A DNA stretch of 64,000 bases from a virus (taxonomy: Duplodnaviria > Caudoviricetes). Below, piece after piece: positions 41,261-60,934 of this stretch (within the stretch, counting starts at the first letter, position 1; the number at the start of each line of letters is the position of its first letter). Under the pieces are notes generated by a model, which saw only the letters and a list, made by a program, of their open reading frames with translations, had not been told where the DNA came from and searched no databases. The stretch is taken from positions 1 to 64,000 of IMG/VR virus record IMGVR_UViG_3300021255_001866; one strand, written 5' to 3'. The position numbers were made by a program, and so were the translations under genes.

Positions 41261-42082
41261 ATGAAGTATATGGTTACAGGGGATTGTCATTCTGTTTTCA
41301 CACGTTTTGCCAATCTCCCCAAAGATGAAGAAATAGGTATGATAATTTTAGGAGATGCCGGTTTTAATTTCTACCTTAATAAAACTGATGCACGAAAGAA
41401 AAAAGAAGTTTCTGAAAACTATCCTAATATTACTTTTTATTGCGTACGCGGCAATCATGAAGCGCGGCCGCAAGATATTCCCAATATGAAACTCAAATAT
41501 GATCCAGATGTGGATGGAATGATCTATATGGAAGATGAATATCCCAATATTCGATACTTCAAAGATTATGGCATTTATACAATTAATGGATATGATTGTG
41601 CTGTAATTGGTGGCGCTTATTCTGTTGATAAATACTGGCGTCTTATGCGTGCTGGCATCACTTCTAAACTCGATAAAGACTATTATAACCCAAAAAAGAC
41701 CGGATGGTTTTGGAATGAGCAGTTGACTGCGGAAGAGATGGATCGAGCAGCCGCATTGTTCAAAGGGCAGCACTTTAGTTTTGTCTTTTCGCATACTTGC
41801 CCTTTTGAGTGGGAGCCAAACGATCTTTTTCTTTCACAAGTAGATCAAACCACTGTTGATAAGTCTATGGAATTTTGGATGGATAAAATCAAAAATACTT
41901 TTGAAGGGGAAGTATGGTTGTTCGCACACTTCCATGCTGATCGTATTGAGCGGCCGCACGTTGAAATGTATTATCATGATATGGAAGAACTCAATGAAAT
42001 ATATAATCGCTGGAAAAGATATGATGCTACCGGCGAACTTGAATGGCATTTGGTTAAAAGTCCGAATTTCTATATGACTTAA
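41261..42082 (+). CDS. calcineurin-like metallophosphoesterase
   Basis: TGDCHS, GDAG, RGNHE, SHTCP, HFH. Confidence 0.88.
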   Translation: MKYMVTGDCHSVFTRFANLPKDEEIGMIILGDAGFNFYLNKTDARKKKEVSENYPNITFYCVRGNHEARPQDIPNMKLKYDPDVDGMIYMEDEYPNIRYFKDYGIYTINGYDCAVIGGAYSVDKYWRLMRAGITSKLDKDYYNPKKTGWFWNEQLTAEEMDRAAALFKGQHFSFVFSHTCPFEWEPNDLFLSQVDQTTVDKSMEFWMDKIKNTFEGEVWLFAHFHADRIERPHVEMYYHDMEELNEIYNRWKRYDATGELEWHLVKSPNFYMT

Positions 42083-42084
42083 TT

Positions 42085-42135
42085 TTGACTTTTTAATAAA
42101 TCTATAGTATAATATATATAGAAAATGAGAAAGGG
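42085..42135 (+). promoter_or_regulatory. representative copy of the repeated sigma70-type promoter/RBS cassette
   Basis: TTGACT-N17-TATAAT followed by the conserved ATATATAGAAAATGAGAAAGGG; many near-identical copies in the window. Confidence 0.85.
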
Positions 42136-42144
42136 AGCTAAGAA

Positions 42145-42348
42145 ATGAGAGATCCTAAACGTATTCCACGTATCCTTCATGAAATTCAACGTGTATGGGA
42201 AGCCTTTCCCGATTTGAGACTTGGACAACTTCTACTCGATGCTTATGATGATGCTCTTTATTATATCGAAGACGAAGATCTTGTACATGAACTACTAGAA
42301 TTTGGATATAAATATGCAAAGGAGACCCTTGATGGCGAAAAGAGATAA
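42145..42348 (+). CDS. small phage protein (MRDPKRI family)
   Basis: First ORF after the promoter cassette. Confidence 0.7.
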   Translation: MRDPKRIPRILHEIQRVWEAFPDLRLGQLLLDAYDDALYYIEDEDLVHELLEFGYKYAKETLDGEKR

Positions 42349-42480
42349 AAACCGTTCGTATAATGAATGGGAAGACGATTGGAAAGATCCCGAAGAAGAG
42401 CAGAAGAAGAAACGTGAAAAAGAACGCCATGATCAGAGAACTCGTAAATATATGGCAGCAGATGATTGGGATGATATAGA

Positions 42481-42768
42481 ATGAAGAGAGTCGGACCGGA
42501 AGATATTATCCAGATCAATGAAGCATATCTGGCATGTGGTACTTATAGTGGCGCGGCGGCAGCTACTGGATGGTCAGCTTCAACGGTAAAGAAATATGTT
42601 GATCCAAATTATAAAAGTCAACCAGTAATAACAGAAGATGAAGTTGATATTGAACTTCCACCGCTCTCTCAAGTTGCCGAATGGCTGCCGCCTTGGTATG
42701 ATATTACTTGTTTGACGCCACAAGAAGAGAAAGAAATCAAACAGCTCTGGAAGGAGATGTTGGTGTGA
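42481..42768 (+). CDS. HTH-containing hypothetical protein
   Basis: GTYSGAAAATGWSASTVKKY helix-turn-helix pattern. Confidence 0.6.
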   Translation: MKRVGPEDIIQINEAYLACGTYSGAAAATGWSASTVKKYVDPNYKSQPVITEDEVDIELPPLSQVAEWLPPWYDITCLTPQEEKEIKQLWKEMLV

Positions 42769-43079
42769 AAACCTATTTTGAATTTCGTGAGACAAGTAAT
42801 AATGGTTGGACTATTTGTCCAGTTCATAAAGAGTGGATTGGAGAAGATTTCTCAAAGCCGATAAAAGGTAGTTTTAATTTGTTAGCTTGTAGGGTGTCTG
42901 GACTTAGCTGGCCGCAATGGCTTCGGTATTGTCGTCAAAATGGTGCTTCTTTATATGGGAAGGGACATAAATATGTAGTGGCTGTATGGAGAGAACCGAA
43001 TAAAGCTTTCCTTACAAAACTTAACCAGCGGGCTAATGACCTTGCGAAGATTATTGATTTTAAGGAGTTGAATCTATAA
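42765..43079 (+). CDS. hypothetical protein (GTG start)
   Basis: GTGA overlap with the upstream stop. Confidence 0.6.
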   Translation: MKTYFEFRETSNNGWTICPVHKEWIGEDFSKPIKGSFNLLACRVSGLSWPQWLRYCRQNGASLYGKGHKYVVAVWREPNKAFLTKLNQRANDLAKIIDFKELNL

Positions 43080-43213
43080 TGGATAAGCAGATCTTTAAGA
43101 AGACTGGCGAAGAACTTCAAGAGTTTTTGAATTTTAGGAAGAGAGCCAATAGAGTACCAAGTAAGAAGGGTAAAGGTTCATATAATCGTAAAGATTTTAA
43201 GAAGGGAGAATAG
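43079..43213 (+). CDS. ArfA-like small basic protein (44 aa to TAG; 54 aa to 43243 if TAG=Gln)
   Basis: AAGGAG RBS; MDKQIFKKTGEELQEFLNFRKRANRVPSKKGKGSYNRKDFKKGE contains the KKGKGSYxRK ArfA motif. Confidence 0.6.
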   Translation: MDKQIFKKTGEELQEFLNFRKRANRVPSKKGKGSYNRKDFKKGE

Positions 43214-43214
43214 G

Positions 43215-43427
43215 ATGGATGTAAAGCTATGCCCGAGATGTAATAAGTTGCCAAATATTAAGGTGAAGCATAAACTTAGATATATGTGTGTTATGAGTTG
43301 TGGTACACTTGGGTGCAAGTTGTATTATCCCATTATTACACTTGGTTTTAATAAAGAGAAGACAATGAAGAAGGCGGCCGAGCGATGGAATGCTGCGGTT
43401 GATAGATATGATGATTTAGTTCTATAA
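43215..43427 (+). CDS. Lar-like zinc-finger small protein
   Basis: CPRC..CGTLGC..AAERWN. Confidence 0.6.
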   Translation: MDVKLCPRCNKLPNIKVKHKLRYMCVMSCGTLGCKLYYPIITLGFNKEKTMKKAAERWNAAVDRYDDLVL

Positions 43428-43442
43428 AGGAGAGTGATGTAA

Positions 43443-43930
43443 ATGTCCTTGAAGATTCTCTTCTTGGATGTTTAGCCCGAAAGGGCAAATAAGTAGATGG
43501 AGTATTAAATAATAATCGAACTCGTACTGTAACATTCGATGGATGGCGTTTTGTTGATGATTATCTAGTTGAACGTTTAAAACAAATAATTGATGCCACG
43601 GGCGCCAAGATCGTATTAAGTTCTACATGGCGGGATGGTTGGAATAGAGAAGATGAGTCTAAGAATGAACCATTCTTTAACCAGCTCAGAGATAAACTCA
43701 AAGAGTATGGAATGGAAATTTGGGATGCTCTTCCAATACCTGTGCGGTCAAGTCGTGGCATTGCTATTAATGAATGGTTTAAATTACATAAAGATTTAAG
43801 TATCGAATCTTTTGTAATTTTAGATGATTGGTATGACATGGGTATATATAGAGATTATCTTATTCAAACAAATGGCGGTATTGGCCTCACCGATGAAGAT
43901 GTACAAGAAGCTATTAATATGCTTAATTAA
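43443..43930 (+). CDS. HAD-family phosphatase (RNA-repair 'Swiss army knife' HAD type), interrupted by a 23-nt insert at 43473-43495
   Basis: MSLKILFLDV|DGVLN..IVLSSTWR..FVILDD; removing 23 nt gives an exact 155-codon frame. Confidence 0.85.
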
Positions 43931-43942
43931 CAGGTGGTATAG

Positions 43943-44126
43943 AATGACTATTATTGTTGAAGGCGATTTAAATCGTCTTAAAGAAATTAAACGATTTAAT
44001 TGCCGTAAGTGTGGTTGTATTTTTGATGCTGAAAAAGAAGAGTATAAAGTATCAAGCCAGTATAACGAAGAATATTATTCGTGTATCTGTCCAACTTGCG
44101 GCAATAATGTGTATATTCCGCACTAA
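43943..44126 (+). CDS. small zinc-ribbon protein
   Basis: CRKCGC..CPTCG. Confidence 0.6.
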
Positions 44127-44474
44127 AGTAAAAATTTGATTTTTTCTGAATTTTAGTGTATACTATATATAGAAAATGAGAAAGGGGGATAAATAAAATG
44201 TACGATGATTTTGATACCATGCAGCAAATTGAAGAAATTATTCCCGATGAATATGATGATTGGTGTCGTTGGGTATATGGTGGTGCTTATCGAGAAGAAG
44301 AAGATTAAATGAAAGAATTTTTATTTAAAGTTTCAACTTATCATTATGTTGCTGCTGAAAATCTTGATGAAGCATATGAGAAATTAGAAACAGAAATTAT
44401 AAACGAATATGATCATGTTGTAGATGTTGAAACACTTGATGAATATGAACTATAAGATTTAAAATAAGACATAT

Positions 44475-44545
44475 ATTGGTTTGGTGTAGTGGAGATGCAC
44501 GGCCTTCGCAAAGGGCAGGGATTAGTTCGATTCTAATAACTGATA
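44475..44545 (+). tRNA. degenerate tRNA-like gene (GCA/Cys-like loop, no encoded CCA)
   Basis: Acceptor ATTGGTT/AACTGAT, T arm ATTAG-TTCGATT-CTAAT, non-canonical anticodon arm. Confidence 0.4.
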
Positions 44546-44749
44546 AAAATCCTGAGTCACAAGGAAGTAAAAGATATGTAGACGGTCGCTAGTGTGTAGA
44601 ATTCTAGATGCGGTGTCACAAGCATAAATACCACACAACGAATTGATGGTTGTTTTAAGTAGTTTTTCTTCCTCGATATGAAAAAGGTCAAAGTTTAAGC
44701 GGCCAGCAACTGTCGCTATAAAAATAAGTTAATAAGCCAAAGATGAAGT

Positions 44750-44820
44750 AAGATGTTGGTTCGAATCCAATTCTGCCGAAAAGTGGCAGGTAGTTTAATT
44801 GGTAAAACGGCGAAGAATCT
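44750..44820 (+). ncRNA. circularly permuted tRNA-like module (YrlA-like)
   Basis: Order is T arm (GTTGG-TTCGAAT-CCAAT), loop-closed acceptor stem (TCTGCCG-AAAAG-TGGCAGG), D arm (GTTT-AATTGGTA-AAAC). Confidence 0.7.
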
Positions 44821-45197
44821 CAATTGGTGTCTCACACAATCCTTGTGGCGAGACAAGTGTGATAAGTCCAGTTACGGCGGTAGAGAAAGATACGCCACAT
44901 CTATGCTCTACTTAAAAGGACGTGTAGGGTACCTCCACGTTGGTGCGTCTGGACGGAATTAGGAGCGCAAACTAATAAACCGAGAACTAACACCCGAGAT
45001 AGTAAAAGCATAATATAGCGTAAAAGCTTATTCATTCCTCTTCAAGTATAGAAGGCGGATACATTATCCGATACAACAGTACCTGGACGTGCACATAGAA
45101 TTTCGGCCATAATCGAGATGGAGGGAGCCGTGGAAGCGAATGAAGCTATCGAATTGATGTACTGGGGTGACGGGCAGTATAATCACACCGTCAATAT

Positions 45198-45274
45198 GCT
45201 CGGTTCGAATAATAGGTCTAGTTCACGAGGCCTTCAATCTCGTAATAGAAGTTCGAGTCTCCTACCGAGTACCA
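45198..45274 (+). tRNA. tRNA-Glu(TTC), atypical (C33, T-stem mismatch)
   Basis: GCTCGGT/ACCGAGT-A-CCA; CGAGG-CCTTCAA-TCTCG. Confidence 0.65.
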
Positions 45275-45302
45275 TAAAATGGAAATATAAGGAAATAGAT
45301 AT

Positions 45303-45378
45303 GGCGGGTGGGAGGTTAGTATTTCAACCAGCCTCATAAGCTGGGTAAACCGACTGCAATTGTCGAGACCCGCAACCA
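45303..45378 (+). tRNA. tRNA-Met(CAT), 1:72 mismatch as in initiator tRNAs
   Basis: CCAGC-CTCATAA-GCTGG; ends ACCA; degenerate T loop TGCAATT. Confidence 0.8.
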
Positions 45379-45515
45379 GTTACCATTTATTTCAACTCCT
45401 TTCTTTGATAAGACTCACCTACGGGGAACCATCTCACTATTACTGACCAAAAGGTAATGGCGGCGGAGATGGCTGTGAGAAAATACGCTACCCTTTTTAT
45501 TTAATTGGTAATTTA

Positions 45516-45566
45516 AAAGGCACATGCAGCAATTTTAGTGGGTAATCGCAAACCTTTTCGTGTCTT
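45516..45566 (+). ncRNA. minimal stem+GCAGCAA RNA family member
   Basis: AAGGCACA-TGCAGCAA ... CGTGTCTT. Confidence 0.5.
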
Positions 45567-46339
45567 GTTTTTCTCTATATTCAAACGATGGCTTCTGAAT
45601 TCCGAGGTCCACCACTGCGTATCGAACGGTCAAAAAGCGCGGGAACTCCAGGGAAAGAACTCTGCGGATACGGGTTGTGCCGTGCAAGTTACCTCCTCAA
45701 GAGAAGGAAGACTATTTTCCTTAGTAGTCTTCCTTCTTTCTTTTTATTTTGACTTTTTAGAAAATTTTTGGTATAATATATATAGAAAATAAGAAAGGGA
45801 TAAATAAAATGAAGGTTTATTTGCTCATTCAAGACCAAGCTCTATGCGTACAAGGGTATGAAGTAGGCATAGAAAGCTATGTTTGCGGGGTATACTCCAC
45901 GCGTCAGAAAGCAGCTAAGGCAATGTACGAAAAAGACGATGACCCTTATGTGGATTATCACATTATTGAGAAAGAGGTCGTATAAATGACTCTTGTGGAT
46001 ATTAAAGATTTGAGGCTAAAAACTGGATGTTCTTTGGGGGATGCTCGCGAAGCAATTAAATATGCAGAAGAGCATGAAGAATGTACTCCTTTAGGATATT
46101 TAAAAGCTAAATACTTTGCTGTTAAAATTGAGCCTTTTGAGAGAAAAGTGAGGTTGTTTTCAAAATGAATTATGTTATAAGTGAAGAAAGGCTTAGAGAA
46201 CTTCTTGAGGAAGAGGCTCGTTATATTGCTCTTGAAAATGGTGGAGTAGATAATTGGGAGTGGTATGGTGCATCAATTCAAGAATATCTTAGTTTGTGTG
46301 AAGTAAATTCTATTTTTGAAATAGCAAAAGAAAGGATGA

Positions 46340-46657
46340 ATGAATTTGAAGCTCTGGATTGATGACGTGCGCCGGCCGCCTTCTACGGATTGGATTTGGA
46401 TTAAAACAGTTAAAATGGCTAAATCTGTTATTTGGTACTATGAGCATCAATATCAGGATGATACTATTACGATTGACCTTGATCATGATGCCGGCGACTT
46501 TACCAAGGACGGTGGCGACTATATTGAGATTCTGAATTGGCTTGAACGCGAAGGCATTGTTGATACTGGGTACTTTTTTCATATTCATTCTATGAATGTA
46601 GTTGGAGTTCAAAATATGCGCGCGATTATTCAGCGTAATGGATGGAGAGAGATCTAA
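46340..46657 (+). CDS. cyclic-phosphate-processing receiver-domain protein
   Basis: LWIDDVRRP..IDLDHD..IHSMN..G..NM pattern. Confidence 0.75.
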   Translation: MNLKLWIDDVRRPPSTDWIWIKTVKMAKSVIWYYEHQYQDDTITIDLDHDAGDFTKDGGDYIEILNWLEREGIVDTGYFFHIHSMNVVGVQNMRAIIQRNGWREI

Positions 46658-48274
46658 AGAGAACGCTTAATGTGTTCTCTTTTTATTTTATATTTGATTT
46701 TTTAGAAAATTTATGCTATAATGTATATAGAAAATAAGAAAGGGGATAATAAAATGGCTTGGGAAAAGATGGCACATTTGATTGAAGTAAATTATGGTGG
46801 TCATGTTGATTGGGATGAAGAGTTTTTTGAGTGTCCCGAGTGCGGTGAGCCTATCTATAAATGTGATTGGCAAGAAGAAGACTATTTTATGGGACATCCG
46901 TATTATGGTACATTTTATTGTCCGGTTTGTGAGAGTGTGATTGATTAAATGAAACATTATACAATTGAATTTGGTGAAGGGGCTTAAGTATGGCTGTGTA
47001 CTTTAAAGGCATGGAGATGCCGAAGCGTTGTAGTGAATGCTTTTTCGCAAAGCTAAGCCCGACAGGAGAAAGCCTTATCTGTGACCGTATATTATCAAAA
47101 GTCCCATGGGATGAAAGGCCGTTTGATTGTCCTTTCAGCGAAGTTCAAGAACCACATGGGCGGCTGATTGATGCAGATGCACTACCAATAAGTACGGCTG
47201 TATCACTTGATGGGAAGCCCTATCAATATGTTCACATCGATAATATTAAAGCTGCTCCAACTATTATTTCAGCAAGTAAAGAGGGCGAGTGATGGAGCAG
47301 TTTTGTGGATGCTGGATGACTTATCCTAGATGCAAGGAAGATTGCTATTGGTATGAAGAATGGCAAGACATGGGAGCTCACATTCCATACTGTCGGTGTA
47401 AGAAAAGTGATTTTATTGAGCCAAAAGATTGTGAGAATTGTGAGCAATATCACAGCAAGTACAAACCTACAAACGCCGACCGCATCCGCGCCATGAGCGA
47501 CGAGGAACTGGCTGGGTGGCTTGCAGATCATCCCGTAGTTTCGGAGTATGACGAAAACAATCCGCAACATAAAGCGTGGCTCGACTGGCTGAAAGAGGAG
47601 GCTGAGTAATGACTAATGCCGACAAGATCAAGCAAATGAGCTTCGTTGAACTTACACAATTCCTTGCAGAAAATTTCGATTGCGAATGTTGCCCTGCGAA
47701 AGTCGGGGATGATTGCCAATACTGTCTGCAAGCAGTTGCAGATTGGCTAAAGCAAGAAATAGATTAAATTTTAAGGAGGGCTGCGGCGTGTCTCGTTCAT
47801 ATAAAAAGCATCCATATTGTACTGATGGTCATCGCCGCAGTACGAAGGAAACAAAACAGATTGCTAATCGTTGCGTGCGCCGCCGCAACAAACGGATAAC
47901 TCTTGGATATTTAACAAGAGAATCACGGTATAGAGACATTTTAACTCTTGATGGTATGTCATATAAGAAATTTTGGTGTTCTTGGGATATTCATGATTAT
48001 ATTAGTCGTTGGACTAAAGCAGAAGCAATCCATGAATGGGAGCATCCACATTGGCAATATTGGGAATATAGAGATGAATGGTGGCATACTTGGGAAGAAT
48101 ATAAGACAAAAGAAGAAATGGAACAGTATTGGGCTAAGTGGTATAGGAGAAAGTAATGAAATTTGTATCTGATATAAAATATTGTCCAAAATGTGGTAGG
48201 CCTATGCATTTTACTAATATTGGTACTTTTTATTATTGGATTTGTTTTATATGTATGGTGGAAGAGGATGAAAA

Positions 48275-48835
48275 ATGATTGAAGGGCTTTATAAATGTTT
48301 TGAACATTGGCATAGAGAGGGTACGGTTTGGCTTTACAGTGACACCCATTTTAATGAAGATAGCGATATTCGTGTGGCATTTCCAAATCGCCCTTCTGCC
48401 GAAGAACAAATCAAACTAATTAATTCTAAGGTCGGCCGCAAGGATCATCTAATTCTTCTTGGAGATGTTGGAGACATTGAGTGCGCGCGAAAGCTCAGAG
48501 GACATAAGATTCTTATTAAGGGGAACCATGATAGTGGTCTTTCTAATTATGAAGATGTATTTGAAGAAGTATATGGCGGCCCGCTCATGATTGGAGAACG
48601 TATTATTTTGTCTCATGAGCCGCTGGCCATTAGCTGGGCTTTTAATATTCATGGGCATACTCATATGAGTACCTTTGATCGCCCTGGTCATCTTTGTGTA
48701 TGTAGTGATGTAATTCATTATATGCCTGTAAACTTTAATCAGTTTGTAAAGAGCGGCCGGCTCAAAGAAGTTATGTCACTGCATCGTTCTACGATTGATA
48801 AAGCAACAGAAAGAAAGCAGAAAAGGAGTAAGTAA
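48275..48835 (+). CDS. calcineurin-like metallophosphoesterase
   Basis: SDTHF, LGDVG, KGNHD, LSHEP, IHGHTH. Confidence 0.88.
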   Translation: MIEGLYKCFEHWHREGTVWLYSDTHFNEDSDIRVAFPNRPSAEEQIKLINSKVGRKDHLILLGDVGDIECARKLRGHKILIKGNHDSGLSNYEDVFEEVYGGPLMIGERIILSHEPLAISWAFNIHGHTHMSTFDRPGHLCVCSDVIHYMPVNFNQFVKSGRLKEVMSLHRSTIDKATERKQKRSK

Positions 48836-48836
48836 T

Positions 48837-49607
48837 ATGGAACAAAGAATTGTGCGCCCAAATATGGCAGAACATTATTTTTTTTATAATATGAGTTTTC
48901 CTCCTTATCGGCAATTTATGCTAGTACCCGTCGGTAGTTGGAATTATAATTGTGCAGATGAACATAGTGATGTAGATACTAAAGCAATCTTTGTTCCTTC
49001 TATTTATAATGTGATTGAAGATAAATGTGAATCATATACTCATTTTCTTCAAAATGAAGAACATATTAGTTGCCATGATATTCGCAATTATATGAAAAGT
49101 CTTGTTAAAGGGAATCCACAGTTTTTGGAAACTCTTTTTTCTAAATGGGGAGATTTAAATACTGGGTATTATGGAGAAGAAATTCACAATTTAATGTATA
49201 TACGTGAAGATATTGCACGTTGTAATCCAAATAATACTATGCGTGCACTTCTTGGTATGGCTGACCGCAACTATAAACTTTGTATGTCGCGGAGTGAAGA
49301 AGATCATCTTGGTAAATGGGTTTATCAACTTGTGCGCATTGAAGAGTGTATGAATAAGTATTGCCAAGGTAGAAGTTTTGAAGAATGTCTTCATACGGAT
49401 AAACGTGATTTTTTACTTTCGTTAAAAAATAATGAATATAATAAAGAAGTATTAACTGCTAATGCAGAAGCTTTTATTATGCTTTGTCATAGTCATTATG
49501 ATAGTTTTATCTTTATGAATAATAAAGAAGATAAATGGACTCAATATAAAGTAGAACAAATTGTAATGCAAGTGATGCGGAAATCCATTGAAAAATTTGA
49601 TAAGTAA
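48837..49607 (+). CDS. Pol-beta-type nucleotidyltransferase (RlaP-like)
   Basis: GSWNY..SDVDTK..LVKGNPQFLETLF. Confidence 0.75.
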   Translation: MEQRIVRPNMAEHYFFYNMSFPPYRQFMLVPVGSWNYNCADEHSDVDTKAIFVPSIYNVIEDKCESYTHFLQNEEHISCHDIRNYMKSLVKGNPQFLETLFSKWGDLNTGYYGEEIHNLMYIREDIARCNPNNTMRALLGMADRNYKLCMSRSEEDHLGKWVYQLVRIEECMNKYCQGRSFEECLHTDKRDFLLSLKNNEYNKEVLTANAEAFIMLCHSHYDSFIFMNNKEDKWTQYKVEQIVMQVMRKSIEKFDK

Positions 49608-49862
49608 GTAATTTTATAGTATAATATATATAGAAAATAAGAAAGGGAGTAATAATAATGGAAAGAATGTTTTGCAAAGATGCTAATGCAATTGTTGCAG
49701 TTTATAAATTTGATATGGCATCTGGCATGGCTCTTATTTACAATCCTTGGCTTGCTGAAAAACAGAATGGCAATGGATGGAAACAAGTGAAAATTTCTAA
49801 ACTTATTCCTTTTGATCTTGAAAAAGAAGAGCTTCCTGAAAAATTTAGAAAGGAGTAATTAA

Positions 49863-51077
49863 ATGCTTAATAAGGATAATCAGAGAGAACTTTGTTATGT
49901 AGTGACTATTGATGAAATTCGTCCTATTCCTAATTATGATCGTGTCGAGCATGCTCGTGTTGGTGGTTGGTGGGTGATTGTTCAGAAGGGTCAGTTTAAC
50001 GTTGGCGATCCCGCGATTTATTTTGAGATTGACTCCAAGGTTCCGTCTGATAAGGAATGTTTTGCATTTCTTGAGAAGCGGAACTATAAGGTAAAAACGC
50101 TTCGTATGTGTAAGGTTATAAGCCAAGGGCTTCTTATGCACGCTGAAGATTTCGAATGGACTATTAATGAGTGGGGCGATGCGATTGTTGATGAAAAAGG
50201 CGATCGTCATTATCCCATAGATGAGTCTCGTTTCCTTACCGAAAAACTTGGTGTAACTTATGCTGACGACGAAGATAATAAACGCAAAGCTCCTTCTGTA
50301 GATAAGTATAAAAAGATGGCTCAGCGGCATCCTAATATCTTTAAGAAGAAGTGGGCGCGCTGGCTGATGAAGCGTGAGTGGGGCCGGAAGTTGATGTTTG
50401 TATTCTTCGGTAAGAAGAAAGACAAAAAGAACGGCTGGCCTAGTTATATTGCACAAAAAACTGATGTTGAGAGAATCCAGAATTGTATATTTTTACTAAA
50501 AGATAAACAGCCTTATGTCGCCAGCGAAAAAGTCGACGGATCGAGCTTCTCCGCTATGGCTGAACGTGGAAAATTTAATAAGATTAAATATTATGTCTGT
50601 TCTCGTAATGTAGTCTTTGATACTCCTGATGCTCCTTGCTTCTATGATAGTAATATTTATTTTGAAGCTTGGAATAAGTATAATCTGAAAGAAATTATTA
50701 CCAATATTCTTAATGATTATAATCTTCCTAATGTTGCTATTCAAGCAGAGATTTATGGTGATGGAATTCAGAAGCGCAATTATTCTCTTCATAATGGAGA
50801 GCATCATATGGCAGTATTTCATATTGTTTCTAATGGTGTAAAGTTCCCTATGGATAAAACTGTAGAGATCTGTGAGAAATATGGACTTCCTCATGTTCCT
50901 ATTGTAGATGACAATTATATTCTTCCTGATACTATTGATGAACTTCAGACATATGTTGAAAACGCGCAGTCAATGATTGATGGAAAACCGCGCGAAGGCA
51001 TTGTTTTTTATGATAAGGAAACTGGTCAGCAATACTTTAAGTTTGTGTCTCCAGATTTTCTTCTTAAATTTCATTAA
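49863..51077 (+). CDS. ATP-dependent RNA ligase (Rnl2/DRB0094-like, N-terminal OB domain)
   Basis: EKVDGSS, QAEIYG, F..V, REGIV, FKFV. Confidence 0.88.
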   Translation: MLNKDNQRELCYVVTIDEIRPIPNYDRVEHARVGGWWVIVQKGQFNVGDPAIYFEIDSKVPSDKECFAFLEKRNYKVKTLRMCKVISQGLLMHAEDFEWTINEWGDAIVDEKGDRHYPIDESRFLTEKLGVTYADDEDNKRKAPSVDKYKKMAQRHPNIFKKKWARWLMKREWGRKLMFVFFGKKKDKKNGWPSYIAQKTDVERIQNCIFLLKDKQPYVASEKVDGSSFSAMAERGKFNKIKYYVCSRNVVFDTPDAPCFYDSNIYFEAWNKYNLKEIITNILNDYNLPNVAIQAEIYGDGIQKRNYSLHNGEHHMAVFHIVSNGVKFPMDKTVEICEKYGLPHVPIVDDNYILPDTIDELQTYVENAQSMIDGKPREGIVFYDKETGQQYFKFVSPDFLLKFH

Positions 51078-51151
51078 TTTTCTATACTCTCTTAATCCAA
51101 AGATTACTTTATTTGGAAGATTAAGAGAGTATTTAAAATGGAGAGAAAATT

Positions 51152-51880
51152 ATGGGAAGTTTTATTGATTTAACTGGGAAAAATTTTGGTAGACTAACTG
51201 TAATAGAACGAATATATAAAAAAGGCAATGAATGGTATTGGAAGTGTTAGTGTTAGTGTGGAAATATATGTGAAGTTAGAGGAGTATCATTAAGAGAAGG
51301 TGCAACAAAATCATGTGGATGCCTAAAGAAAGAAAAAGACAGATAGCCGAAAGGAAATGTAAAAGATGAAATTGGTAATAAATATGGACATTTAACTGTT
51401 ATTGCACGCGCTGGAAGTAGTGGTGGACAAGCAATTTGGGAATGCGAATGTGATTGTGATGCAAAAACTCATATATTTGTATTAGGTAATAATTTAAGGC
51501 GTGGTCATACTCAATCATGCGGATGTGATAGACGTTCTCACGGAGAAAAGAAAGTAGAACAGTTATTGAAAGAAAATAATATTTCTTATATCCAAGAGTA
51601 TAAAGCTTTTAAATTCTCATCAGGAATGTGGGCAAGATTTGATTTTTATGTAAATGATCAATATATTATAGAATATGATGGGGAAACACATTATCAAAGT
51701 AATAAACATGGTTGGCATAATGAAGAGCATTTATAGAAAACACAAGAACGTGATATAATTAAAAATCAATGGTGTAAGGATAATAATATTCCATTAATTA
51801 GAATTCCTTACACTCACTTTGATGAATTATGTATAGATGATTTAATATTGGGGACTAGTAAGTTTGTGGTAAATGGGTAA
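51152..51880 (+). CDS. endonuclease with two DLTG..FG.LTV/CxCxC repeats and a DUF559-like domain (TAG=Gln)
   Basis: WKC[TAG]C[TAG]CGN; RFDFY..IEYDG..H..RD.IKN.WC..LIRIPY; exact 243-codon frame. Confidence 0.82.
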
Positions 51881-52219
51881 TTATCAGATATTCTGCGGTT
51901 GTTTCTGGATTGGAATAGTCATAATGGCAATTGTATATAAGGATGGAGAAAAGTAATTTGACTTTTCTCCATTTTTATATTATAATATATATAGAAAGTA
52001 TGAAAGGGGATCTATAAAATGACCGTTTATGAAAAGATTGATCGTGTTCTGAAACAGCATGAAAGCTATAAGTATTGTGAGCGATCATTGGATTCTATTG
52101 CTGACTATATTGACTGGGCATGGAAGTGGCGAAAAATTAGTAGAGAAGAAATGGAGAACGCTGCGGATAGAGTTTGTGAGTTGTATGCGCGAGAATTAAA
52201 GAAGGAAAGGATTTAAGAT

Positions 52220-52729
52220 TTGATGGATAATAAAACTCTTTGGATTATGTGCGGGCCGCCAGCTTCGGGGAAAAGTTTTTATGCCACTCATACGTTACAG
52301 TGCGGCGCTGGCTGGAGTTATGTTTCGCGTGATATAATTCGATTCTCTATTGTGGGAGAAGAAGAAGAATATTTTTCACATGAAAAAGAAGTGTTTGATA
52401 CTTTTGTTGAAAATATTGTAGCCAGGCTTAATACTGAAGGTATTTATAACGTTATTGCTGATGCTACTCATTTGAATTGGGTTTCTCGTAGAAAACTTAT
52501 TAAAGCAGTAGAATATTATCTTGGTTTTGGTTTTCGAGATTTGAATATTATCCCGGTCTTTATGAATACTCCTATTGAAGTAATTGAAGAAAGAAATTCA
52601 AAACGGACTGGCCGCGAACGCGTACCAAGTAAAGTGTTGAGAGACATGAATTTTAATTATGAAGATCCCAAAACTGATCCTTATAATTATAATGGAATAT
52701 TGTATGTAAATTATTATGGAAGTGTATAA
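52220..52729 (+). CDS. polynucleotide kinase-like P-loop kinase (AAA_33)
   Basis: CGPPASGKS, SRD, DATHL, R. Confidence 0.82.
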   Translation: MMDNKTLWIMCGPPASGKSFYATHTLQCGAGWSYVSRDIIRFSIVGEEEEYFSHEKEVFDTFVENIVARLNTEGIYNVIADATHLNWVSRRKLIKAVEYYLGFGFRDLNIIPVFMNTPIEVIEERNSKRTGRERVPSKVLRDMNFNYEDPKTDPYNYNGILYVNYYGSV

Positions 52730-53262
52730 TGATATATCTAACTTCTGATTTTCATTTTGGTCATGACCGCGAGTTTATTTATGGTCCACGTGGATATAGT
52801 AATATATATGAAGAAGCAGAAGATCTAATTCAGAAATTTAATAGTGTTGTAACGTGGGAAGATACAGTCTATATTCTTGGTGATTGTATGCTGAATAATG
52901 ATGAATTTGGACTAAAGTGTCTGCGACGGCTCAATGGATTTAAATATCTTATTGTAGGTAATCATGATACAATTGCACGAGTAATGAAGTACCAAGATAG
53001 TGGTATCTTTACGTCTATCGATTACGGCGGCCGCCTACATTATAATAACTGGACGTATCTACTTTCACATTATCCGCAGATCACAGAAAATTATCAAGAT
53101 CGTCATAAGGTTATAAGTCTTTGCGGCCATTCCCATACAAAAGATCCTTTTCTTCATTGGGATAATGGACTTATTTATCATGTTGAAGTAGATGCACATG
53201 ATGGCTACCCAGTAAGTATAGACCAAATTGAAAGTGATATACGGAAGAAACTTAATATTTGA
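52729..53262 (+). CDS. calcineurin-like metallophosphoesterase coupled to the kinase
   Basis: SDFHF, LGDC, GNHD, SHYP, GHSH. Confidence 0.88.
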   Translation: MIYLTSDFHFGHDREFIYGPRGYSNIYEEAEDLIQKFNSVVTWEDTVYILGDCMLNNDEFGLKCLRRLNGFKYLIVGNHDTIARVMKYQDSGIFTSIDYGGRLHYNNWTYLLSHYPQITENYQDRHKVISLCGHSHTKDPFLHWDNGLIYHVEVDAHDGYPVSIDQIESDIRKKLNI

Positions 53263-56229: not shown

Positions 56230-56782
56230 GGCTCCGTAGTTCAGCAACGAAGAATACCTGACTGTGTAAGAATATTTTTGAATAGGTTGATAAAATGAAC
56301 ACCTCTCAACTAGGAAACATTGGAGAAGTACGTGTTTTAAGTGAATTTGTAAAATTAGGAATACCTTGTTATTTACCTTATGGTGATGGTAATAAATGCG
56401 ATTTAATTGCAGATTTTAATGGAAAACTTAATAAAATTCAAATTAAAACTACAGAAAAATTAAATATTAATGGAGCGATGGAGTGGAAAGTTACCAGACA
56501 AGAAGGATTTCATGGAAATCGTGTCCAATATAATAAAGAAGATATAGACTATTTCGCTTTTTATTGTATAGAAACTGATATAGTTTGTTTAGTTCCATTT
56601 GATGAAAATTTTCCTAGTACAACTTTATCAATTCGTATGGATAATTATGTTGGTAATAGATTAAAAACCATGCGATTTGTAAAAGATTATCAAATTAGTA
56701 ATTTTATTAATTCATAAGGTCATACCTTATTTCTTACACCACACTCAGGAGGTCGTGGGAGCAAAGCCCACCGGAGTCGCCA
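56230..56782 (+). tRNA. tRNA-Asp(GTC) split by a 476-nt insert (56266-56741)
   Basis: Exon 1 GGCTCCG..CCTGACTGT plus exon 2 CACTCAGG..CGGAGTC-G-CCA gives a 77-nt cloverleaf with G73. Confidence 0.85.
56295..56717 (+). CDS. PD-(D/E)XK endonuclease encoded inside the tRNA-Asp insert
   Basis: GNIGE..PYGD..DLIAD..KIQIK..Y....IDYF. Confidence 0.85.
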   Translation: MNTSQLGNIGEVRVLSEFVKLGIPCYLPYGDGNKCDLIADFNGKLNKIQIKTTEKLNINGAMEWKVTRQEGFHGNRVQYNKEDIDYFAFYCIETDIVCLVPFDENFPSTTLSIRMDNYVGNRLKTMRFVKDYQISNFINS

Positions 56783-56897
56783 ACTGAGGAGAGTAAGCGC
56801 TCGAATTGACGAGCTACTACACACGACAGGGTCAGTTGTGATTCTCCGCATAGGAGTAGTTGCCCTATGTACCTATATAAATAGCAACTGATTTTTT

Positions 56898-57160: not shown

Positions 57161-57287
57161 AAGACGTATACAGCAAAATCTTCTTTAAGAAGGATATGGG
57201 TTCGATTCCCATAATTGGAGTGCTCCAATTTAGCCAAACGGTAAGGCAACAGTCTGATAACTGTGAATAAAATCTTATATACGTCTT
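57161..57287 (+). ncRNA. stem+ACAGCAA RNA enclosing a permuted tRNA mimic
   Basis: AAGACGTA..TACGTCTT; T arm TATGGG-TTCGATT-CCCATA, closed acceptor ATTGGAG-TG-CTCCAAT, D arm GCC-AAACGGTAA-GGC, anticodon-like ACAGT-CTGATA-ACTGT. Confidence 0.75.
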
Positions 57288-57295
57288 GTTAATAT

Positions 57296-57431
57296 GCGGG
57301 CGTGGTGGAATAGGTAGACACCACAGACGCTAGTGTCCAGTGACAATTAGCTGGGGCAGCACCAGTGTCTAGCACCATTAAAATCTGTTGGGTTTTAGCC
57401 CGTGCCGGTTCAAGTCCGGCCGCCCGCACCA
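57296..57431 (+). tRNA. tRNA-Leu(TAA) with a 49-nt insert (57329-57377)
   Basis: GCGGGCG..ACAGAC | TTAAAA TCTGT..CGCCCGC-A-CCA gives an 87-nt class II tRNA after removal. Confidence 0.88.
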
Positions 57432-57895: not shown

Positions 57896-58445
57896 GCCGG
57901 AGTCCCATAGTGGTCAATTGGAACGGTTTTGTTTACTGAATTTATTTATTATGGATTTATTAAGTTCTAAGCAAAAAGGGAATTTAACTGAGCTACAATG
58001 TATTACTAGCTTTTATGAATTAGGGTATACTGTGTCAATTCCTTATGGAGAAAATTCCCGTTATGATTTTATTGCGGATATTCATGGAAAATTAATTAAA
58101 GTTCAAGTTAAAACTTCTTCTGAGAAAGATGAAGGAAAAACTTTTGAATTTTCTTGTCGAAGCACTAGAGTAAACGCTCAAGGCAATATTTCTAGGCAAT
58201 ATACAGCAGATGAAATTGATTATTTCTGTACTTATTTTAAAAATTAGTGCTATTTAATACCTATTTCGGAATGTTCTAGATCTAAAAAACTTAGATTAGA
58301 AGCTCCTATTAATAATCAAAAGGTGGGGATTAATATGGCAAAAGATTATGAATTAATAACCCAACTTAATAAATTAAAAGGATAAACATTGGTAAACAAA
58401 GCCGTCGCGCAAGCTTCGTGAGTTCGAATCTCACTTCCGGCTCCA
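57896..58445 (+). tRNA. tRNA split by a 466-nt insert; Ser(TGA) or Thr(TGT) depending on the junction
   Basis: GCCGGAG/TTCCGGC-T-CCA; anticodon stem ACGGT/GCCGT; T arm GTGAG-TTCGAAT-CTCAC. Confidence 0.75.
57951..58385 (+). CDS. PD-(D/E)XK endonuclease inside the tRNA insert (one TAG=Gln)
   Basis: KGNLTE..PYGE..YDFIAD..KVQVK..IDYF; paralogous to 56295-56717; exact 145-codon frame. Confidence 0.85.
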
Positions 58446-59706: not shown

Positions 59707-59825
59707 TAGGCACAAACAGCAAATTAAAGATTAAATCTTTATGTTACTGGTTCGAGTCCAGTTTTGCAAGCCATTAATTTTGCATATTGATCAAATGGTA
59801 GATCGGAAGAATTATTATGTGCCTA
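59707..59825 (+). ncRNA. stem+ACAGCAA RNA enclosing a permuted T-acceptor-D module
   Basis: TAGGCACA..TGTGCCTA; ACTGG-TTCGAGT-CCAGT, TTTGCAA..TTGCATA, GATC-AAATGGTA-GATC. Confidence 0.72.
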
Positions 59826-60816: not shown

Positions 60817-60934
60817 CTACAGCTTTACTGAGAATTCCTTATTGGGAACGTGATAATTTAAGTTTAGAATTATTATTTAATAATAAGTATATTATATAAC
60901 TACGGTCTTGACTAAGACTAAGAAGGAGAGTTTT

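Follow-up and report, generated by a model that had tools for sequence, protein, structure and literature searches.

The closest described relatives of the element reported here are the conserved "enigmatic" introns in tRNA genes of Lak megaphages, among them one that is itself a predicted tRNA (Devoto et al. 2019, Nat Microbiol, PMC6784885), and a jumbo-phage survey of 2026 repeated the same observation on tRNA introns. In the literature that we searched, including these two reports, no mechanism is described for tRNA-like introns of phage tRNAs. The Lak introns resemble our insert in that they lie in anticodon loops of phage tRNAs and contain a tRNA-like acceptor/T-arm element. Both they and the family presented here come from gut or rumen phages that use TAG recoding, are highly conserved, are polymorphic for presence and absence in related genomes, and have no hit in Rfam. 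However, the Lak introns of Table S6 are 79 to 114 nt long, end in ...CA or ...CTA as predicted there, and have a 26- to 30-nt 5' segment with its own hairpin in front of the tRNA-like part, whereas our insert lacks this segment, measures 49 nt, ends in ACCA, starts its helix at intron base 1, and has neither an anticodon nor a full D arm. Judged by sequence, this end-to-end design of a minihelix followed by N-CCA is a distinct variant of the published, unexplained phage tRNA introns.

The group I intron of tRNA-Leu(UAA) in cyanobacteria and plastids occupies the same host tRNA and the same loop as our insert, and its relatives can carry homing endonucleases. It has a ribozyme core (P3-P9), measures about 200 nt or more, and lies between U34 and A35. 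In contrast to such introns of more than 200 nt at site 34/35, the present insert of 49 nt sits at 32/33 and has no ribozyme core. The repair system of phage T4, in which PrrC cuts, Pnkp heals, and Rnl1 seals, shares with our phage the combination of a ligase, a kinase, and a phosphatase, encoded here beside a tRNA array. In both systems, the substrate would be a tRNA with a nick in its anticodon loop. However, a host nuclease inflicts the nick in the T4 case, whereas the break here would be programmed by an intron, and the ligase is not an Rnl1 enzyme but Rnl5-like with an N-terminal OB domain, as in the Naegleria type. RNase P and RNase Z free tRNA-like modules in mitochondrial "tRNA punctuation," in the MALAT1 mascRNA, and in the permuted tRNA genes of Cyanidioschyzon; there, as we propose for our insert, general end-processing enzymes find their cleavage points by means of a tRNA-shaped module. 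We know of none among these that is nested in the anticodon loop of another tRNA and whose flanks are religated. To our knowledge, bacteria and their viruses are regarded as lacking protein-dependent introns in tRNAs.

We analyzed a window of 64,000 nt from an 89-kb IMG/VR phage record (73% complete) of an uncultured phage. Positions 57296-57431 (+) are a class II tRNA-Leu(UAA) gene interrupted in its anticodon loop by 49 nt, placed between tRNA nucleotides 32 and 33, and this observation is confirmed (Table 1). ARAGORN did not call the gene with default settings. With introns allowed, it reports tRNA-Leu(taa) at 57296-57431 with a 49-nt intron of identical boundaries; in this mode it also calls the tRNA-Ile(UAU) host of another intron Trp, misses the intron in the neighboring tRNA-Asp, and fuses neighboring genes. 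The Rfam tRNA model covers 57296-57428 with 38.7 bits (cut-off 29) and leaves the insert as a single gap in the anticodon loop. The boundaries are exact because an intron-less ortholog in a related phage (L041:4764-4850), which has identical D and anticodon arms, reads through the junction CAGAC|TTAAAATCTGT without interruption. The letters are those described in an earlier note on this DNA, and its claim that removal of the insert restores a canonical loop agrees with both ARAGORN and the ortholog, which give the 7-nt loop CUUAAAA with U33 in place.

Table 1. Features of the interrupted tRNA-Leu(UAA) gene and of its neighborhood, in window positions
Feature	Start	End	Strand	Description and basis
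ATP-dependent RNA ligase, Rnl5-like, N-terminal OB domain	49863	51077	+	Pfam PHA02142 OB and RNA_ligase
Pnk-like kinase	52220	52729	+	Pfam AAA_33, 63.0 bits (cut-off 27)
Calcineurin-like phosphoesterase	52729	53262	+	Metallophos_2, 23.1 bits, below the curated 27-bit cut-off
Sister intron in tRNA-Asp(GUC)	56266	56741	+	476 nt; same design, ORF-bearing form
tRNA-Leu 5' exon	57296	57328	+	33 nt; acceptor 5' strand, D arm, anticodon-stem 5' strand, C32; ARAGORN with introns, Rfam tRNA, intron-less ortholog
Putative ORF-less intron	57329	57377	+	49 nt; acceptor/T-arm minihelix with terminal ACCA; sequence, ARAGORN, covariance model
Acceptor-like helix, 5' strand GCTAG	57329	57333	+	Pairs with CTAGC 57369-57373; begins at intron base 1
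Small connector hairpin TGTC-CAGT-GACA	57334	57345	+	Relatives retain G[UC]C-CAGU-G[AG]C
T-arm-like hairpin GCTGG-GGCAGCA-CCAGT	57350	57366	+	5 bp, 7-nt loop
Acceptor-like 3' strand GTCTAGC	57367	57373	+	Last 5 nt pair with 57329-57333
ACCA tail	57374	57377	+	Discriminator-like A plus CCA; last four intron bases
tRNA-Leu 3' exon	57378	57431	+	54 nt; U33, anticodon UAA, rest of anticodon arm, long variable arm, T arm, acceptor 3' strand, encoded ACCA

The phage record carries 11 ordinary tRNAs, a CUA suppressor among them. No second tRNA-Leu was found in the 89-kb record (73% complete), so that tRNA-Leu(UAA) is its sole leucine tRNA, and TTA is the second most used leucine codon in the long ORFs of the phage. 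The closest relative (G002), with nucleotide identity of ~70-95% over aligned blocks, carries the identical tRNA-Leu gene and intron; this copy is uninformative, the local identity being 96%.

The insert belongs to a family. We scanned 1.97 Mb of phage DNA from relatives, including 80 related loci fetched via the RNA ligase gene, for anticodon-loop inserts closed by a helix of 5 bp or more with N-CCA behind it, and regarded a candidate as verified when removal of the insert yielded a tRNA called by ARAGORN with the junction within the loop. With the CCA tail, 14 of 6438 candidates were verified, corresponding to 11 distinct introns that have the N-CCA tail in common, compared with 2 of 55598 candidates for ten control tails. 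Three extra matches obtained with a relaxed filter were judged false on account of their unnatural loops. The family comprises mini-introns of 46-49 nt, tRNA-like forms of 71-83 nt, and long forms of 476-844 nt, and its host tRNAs are Leu, Ile, Asp, Glu, Gln, Trp, and the CUA suppressor. From the 3' end inward, every member has N-CCA, a 7-nt acceptor-like 3' strand and, immediately 5' of it, a T-arm-like hairpin with a 5-bp stem and a 7-nt loop, and the partner 5' strand of the acceptor-like helix begins at intron base 1. Members differ in how many loop bases precede the intron (1, 3, 4, or 5). Because the insertion site varies in this way, it is the shape of the intron itself that sets the intron ends, and not the host tRNA.

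When IMG/VR and JGI metagenomes were scanned by pattern for the mini-intron, five additional distinct versions emerged at site 32/33 of tRNA-Leu(UAA) (L118, L124, L129, L130, and L134). Of eight pattern matches in metagenomes, L128 and L135 lie outside tRNAs and were set aside as chance, and the matches to the T-arm pattern in L119, L121-L123, and L125-L127 represent ordinary or long tRNA-like genes and not introns. Trained on five other members and not on the window copy, a covariance model matches the insert end to end (positions 1-49 of 49) with 50.1 bits and an E-value of about 1e-9; MAFFT had moved the 5' strand of the window copy one base off its best pairing, and the model uses five gapless members. 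All 8 full-length matches of this model (six distinct sequences) lie in anticodon loops of tRNAs, and no free-standing copy of the minihelix was found with it in ~2 Mb of related phage DNA. A comparison of the region with 50,697 phage records returned generic tRNA-Ala matches only and no close relative.

Several members bear on the origin and spread of the element. In L112:12172-12297, a homologous 49-mer with the same T-like arm interrupts, at 34/35 and thus inside the anticodon, a tRNA with a UAA anticodon and a short variable loop; because of this different position, we consider that the same element has colonized another tRNA at another site of the loop. Some ordinary tRNAs (L122:271-340, L123, and L126; e.g., tRNA-Cys and tRNA-Met) have the T arm CUGG-G[GU]CAGCA-CCAG. 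Since these ordinary tRNAs share this unusual T arm with the mini-introns, the sequences suggest that the mini-introns derive from phage tRNA genes. In related phages, genes for suppressor tRNA(CUA) and tRNA-Trp contain 75-nt introns (L089:11926-12000, L091:13236-13310, L099:14049-14123, and L098:13561-13635). The first of these has a textbook tRNA-Ala acceptor end, GGGGCUA...UAGCUCC-ACCA, with G3:U70 and A73. The G3:U70 pair is also present in L091, in L099, and in the 47-nt intron of a tRNA-Ile gene (L095:17850-17896, minus strand); L098 has G3-C70 and a G discriminator. Minihelices released from these introns might be chargeable with alanine.

The earlier note regarded the insert as a wider element reduced to its minimum, without an ORF, and the intron in tRNA-Asp(GUC) 1 kb upstream, which has the same frame, bears this out. 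The tRNA-Asp gene spans 56231-56800 and is split between nucleotides 35 and 36 by an insert with the layout GTAAGAA...ATAAG-GTCATAC-CTTAT-TTCTTAC-ACCA, whose connector contains an ORF (56295-56717) for a 140-residue protein of the PD-(D/E)XK_5 family. Among the long forms (476 and 844 nt), an ORF is confirmed only in this one. Its product is similar to PDB 2OST (I-Ssp6803I-like), an entry titled only "Putative endonuclease," which we take to be the homing endonuclease of the group I intron in a cyanobacterial tRNA gene. The boundaries of the tRNA-Asp intron are fixed because the closest relative (G002) precisely lacks the 476 nt. Lacking an ORF, the 49-nt copy cannot home by itself and is the minimal form of these endonuclease-carrying elements.

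The fold given in the earlier note, consisting of a closing stem, a small hairpin, a T-like hairpin, and ACCA, is kept by compensatory changes in the relatives, comparison with which refined the limits of the second hairpin to a 5-bp stem followed by a 7-nt acceptor 3' strand. The homologous terminal helix has 6-7 pairs in the relatives (7 bp in L118), shows compensatory changes at 3 of them, and was recovered independently by RNAalifold. Pairing of all seven acceptor positions next to the 5-bp T-like stem would give a stack of 12 bp; in the window copy, 5 of the 7 acceptor positions pair (GCTAG/CTAGC); G57367 and T57368 are unpaired or mismatched, positions 6:67 and 7:66 being U.U and G.G. 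This is the weakest acceptor-like helix of the family, and the small hairpin of this copy is lengthened to 4 bp. In the relatives, the small hairpin shows one change from U-A to C-G, and RNAalifold gives a competing pairing for this region. The strands of the T-like stem, GCTGG (57350-57354) and CCAGT (57362-57366), are closed by a G.U pair. For the intron interior, RNAalifold prefers an alternative pairing of columns 40-49 with columns 54-64, which shows one-sided changes only and is impossible in L095. The latter member has a wholly rewritten T-like stem (GAGAG/CTCTT) and yet retains the loop GGCAGCA, which favors the T-like arm. From this comparison of sequences, we prefer the T-arm reading as the more probable one.

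The support for the fold of the insert is comparative and not thermodynamic, since the 49-mer alone folds no better than shuffled sequence (z = 0.13). The proposed fold and the lowest-energy fold of the 49-mer are isoenergetic (-13.4 versus -13.5 kcal/mol). In the 136-nt precursor, the lowest-energy fold pairs exon with intron and lies ~13 kcal/mol below the proposed one. We rejected its exon-intron hairpin (AGACGCU/AGUGUCU) as functional because the relatives do not conserve it. Owing to this lower-energy pairing and to the weakest terminal helix, the efficiency with which the window copy would be excised is uncertain.

The earlier note had called for a check of covariation. We ran it on the tRNA-Leu genes, using an alignment (A4) of six distinct intron-bearing precursors and counting pairs on the cloverleaf plus the intron minihelix. 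In these six related sequences, the only source of our covariation evidence, standard pairs make up 99.1% of the pair cells, and two-sided, compensatory changes occur at 12 pairs across cloverleaf and insert. Eight of them are in exon helices (acceptor stem, 4; anticodon stem, 2; T arm, 1; variable arm, 1) and four in intron helices (terminal helix, 3; small hairpin, 1). None of 500 shuffles reached the values of A4, and slid controls gave 0-1 such pairs. Every cloverleaf helix is 100% paired in the six diverged intron-bearing alleles, and RNAalifold independently yields the cloverleaf together with the terminal helix of the intron. The maintenance of both the tRNA and the insert fold despite divergence argues against a dead insertion and for removal of the insert from the RNA. 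From these patterns of sequence change, we consider it highly probable that the 49 nt are a genuine intron that must be removed. The earlier note held that the insert is spliced rather than dead: that it is not dead is backed indirectly by the cloverleaf, kept with eight compensatory pairs, and splicing is what we infer.

How could such an intron be removed? The insert is too small to splice itself, and we therefore considered a protein-dependent route. The intron seems to mimic the acceptor end, or "top half," of a tRNA, with a helix from the first base, a T-arm-like hairpin that may stack on this helix, and a terminal A-CCA. We propose cleavage by RNase P and by an enzyme that cuts after CCA because the intron ends correspond exactly to tRNA ends. 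RNase P would cut between C32 (57328) and G57329, as it does at the 5' end of a tRNA, and a structure-measuring endonuclease would cut directly after the CCA (57377|57378); the latter may be an enzyme of the RNase Z/BN type that cleaves after CCA, or another enzyme. Both cuts would leave a 3'-OH and a 5'-phosphate, the cloverleaf would hold the tRNA halves together, and the phage ATP-dependent ligase would seal the nick in the anticodon loop. The predicted products of the 136-nt precursor are an 87-nt tRNA-Leu(UAA) with the junction CAGAC|TTAAAATC and a free 49-nt minihelix.

Bacterial RNase P accepts acceptor/T minihelices with CCA as substrates. Its cuts, like those of RNase Z, produce 3'-OH/5'-phosphate ends, which ATP-dependent RNA ligases can join. 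Of the phage repair enzymes on which, according to the earlier note, this tRNA could depend, RNase P-type cuts would thus make the ligase necessary, but not Pnk. Two points of enzymology stand against parts of this scheme: CCA blocks RNase Z in many bacteria, which speaks against a cut by RNase Z after the CCA, and the characterized Rnl5 ligases are known to seal nicks in duplexes and not in anticodon loops, which speaks against the role of the ligase. We give even chances to a protein-dependent intron that is excised by RNase P and an after-CCA cut and is resealed by the phage ligase, with splicing, cut sites, and end chemistry predicted from the layout of the intron. Somewhat more tentatively, end-processing enzymes that excise the intron and a phage ligase that reseals the exons may constitute a third way of splicing tRNAs, alongside self-splicing and the route by the splicing endonuclease.

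The candidate for sealing the exons is the ligase encoded 6 kb upstream of tRNA-Leu(UAA), a role that we infer for it. It combines the OB domain with a nucleotidyltransferase domain, its best relative of solved structure is the Naegleria gruberi RNA ligase (E-value, 5e-19), and a contig found independently via the intron pattern (G033) carries the same ligase at 57% identity. The ligase belongs to a cluster of RNA end-processing genes (41261-53262) around the tRNA array, which includes three Metallophos proteins (41261-42082, 48275-48835, and the phosphoesterase of Table 1), an RlaP-like nucleotidyltransferase (48795-49607), and a cREC cyclic-phosphate domain (46340-46657). Searches of the 89-kb record (73% complete) for Lactamase_B_2 (RNase Z-like) and CCA-adding genes, and for PF01974 tRNA-splicing endonuclease and RtcB genes, found none. 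Because the record has no RNase Z-like or CCA-adding gene, the proposed route must assume host enzymes.

The kinase, phosphoesterases, and cREC domain fit equally well with another route, in which a dedicated endoribonuclease of phage or host reads the minihelix, cuts at one junction or at both, and leaves a 2',3'-cyclic phosphate and a 5'-OH, which the phosphoesterase and the Pnk-like kinase would heal before sealing by the ligase, in the manner of T4 (Pnkp/Rnl1) or of fungal and plant splicing. The kinase and the phosphoesterase would be required only for cuts that leave such ends. The dense set of healing genes (kinase, Metallophos, RlaP-like, and cREC) around the tRNA array is consistent with this route, as is the lack of any known enzyme that would cleave after CCA with certainty. 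However, a special nuclease would need neither an exact N-CCA end nor a helix that starts at the first base, and yet this rule is strongly enriched among the verified introns. Moreover, the phage record contains no gene for a tRNA-splicing endonuclease or RtcB, and the healing genes are equally well explained as a defense against anticodon nucleases of the host. We regard this route as rather unlikely compared with excision by RNase P and an after-CCA cut.

The minihelix could instead be primarily a functional small RNA, such as a decoy of tRNA ends or an acceptor for charging, that is released from the tRNA transcript; the tRNA gene would be a mere carrier, and the tRNA would be restored only secondarily or not at all. 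Points in favor are that selection acts on the intron fold, that one intron has the acceptor end of tRNA-Ala (L089) and three more share its G3:U70 pair, and that the phage makes other tRNA mimics (YrlA-like RNAs). However, the window copy lacks G3:U70 and has a helix of only 5 bp, and the exon helices covary as strongly as the intron helices, so that the host tRNA is evidently kept functional. The polymorphism for presence and absence, together with a homing-type endonuclease in some members, is the pattern of a mobile intron. These points make a nested RNA gene improbable as the main explanation, and it is compatible with excision by RNase P and resealing by the ligase.

It is more improbable still that tRNA-Leu(UAA) is a pseudogene, inactivated by what is left of a mobile element. 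No other family member does have so weak a terminal helix as the window copy, the anticodon stem is broken up in the computed fold of the precursor, and the sole other identical copy is in the very close relative. Against inactivation, the cloverleaf helices are fully paired in all six diverged alleles with their eight compensatory exon pairs, the exons score as a normal tRNA, and the gene is the only tRNA-Leu of a record in which TTA is a common codon. Finally, tRNA-Leu(UAA) is the classic bacterial host of group I introns, but a self-splicing group I-like ribozyme or an archaeal-type bulge-helix-bulge intron cut by the splicing endonuclease is barely conceivable, as 49 nt is far under any group I core, the site is 32/33 and not 34/35, Rfam ribozyme and intron families gave no match even at E-values up to 10, the 5' junction coincides with the base of the helix and the 3' junction falls 4 nt beyond it whereas the archaeal motif needs two 3-nt bulges 4 bp apart, and the 89-kb record has no tRNA_int_endo gene.

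Excision by RNase P and an after-CCA cut, followed by ligation, would be a new splicing pathway assembled from housekeeping enzymes. It would give phage RNA ligases a new natural role, make the tRNA supply of the phage conditional on its own ligase, and explain how mobile elements colonize tRNA genes at little cost to the tRNA. The 49-nt copy provides a compact, defined test substrate, with a 136-nt precursor, a predicted 87-nt product, and a 49-nt intron, and such a test system is aided by the ligase gene 6 kb away, the ORF-bearing sister intron 1 kb away, and the intron-less ortholog.

The neighborhood contains a third interrupted class II tRNA (57896-58445), the host of which is Asn according to ARAGORN and Tyr by eye. 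Its insert of ~464 nt has no N-CCA end and contains an ORF (57951-58385) of the PD-(D/E)XK_5 family, which is full length only when one in-frame TAG is read as sense; the score then rises from 87 to 108 bits, and the match covers positions 2-137 of the 138 of the profile. TAG recoding is supported by this need for a sense TAG together with the tRNA(CUA) gene at 65398-65468 of the genome.

Circularly permuted tRNA mimics, each within a closing stem, are present at 57161-57287, 44733-44837, and 59738-59810. They consist of a T arm, an acceptor stem closed by a loop, and a D arm, with or without an anticodon-like hairpin, and show weak matches to the Rfam family YrlA and a fold z score of -2.9. 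Beside them, an ORF at 60908-62440 encodes a 510-residue DUF2828/DUF7788/vWA (Ro60-like) protein, and the mimics and this protein together suggest a Y-RNA-like particle of the phage.
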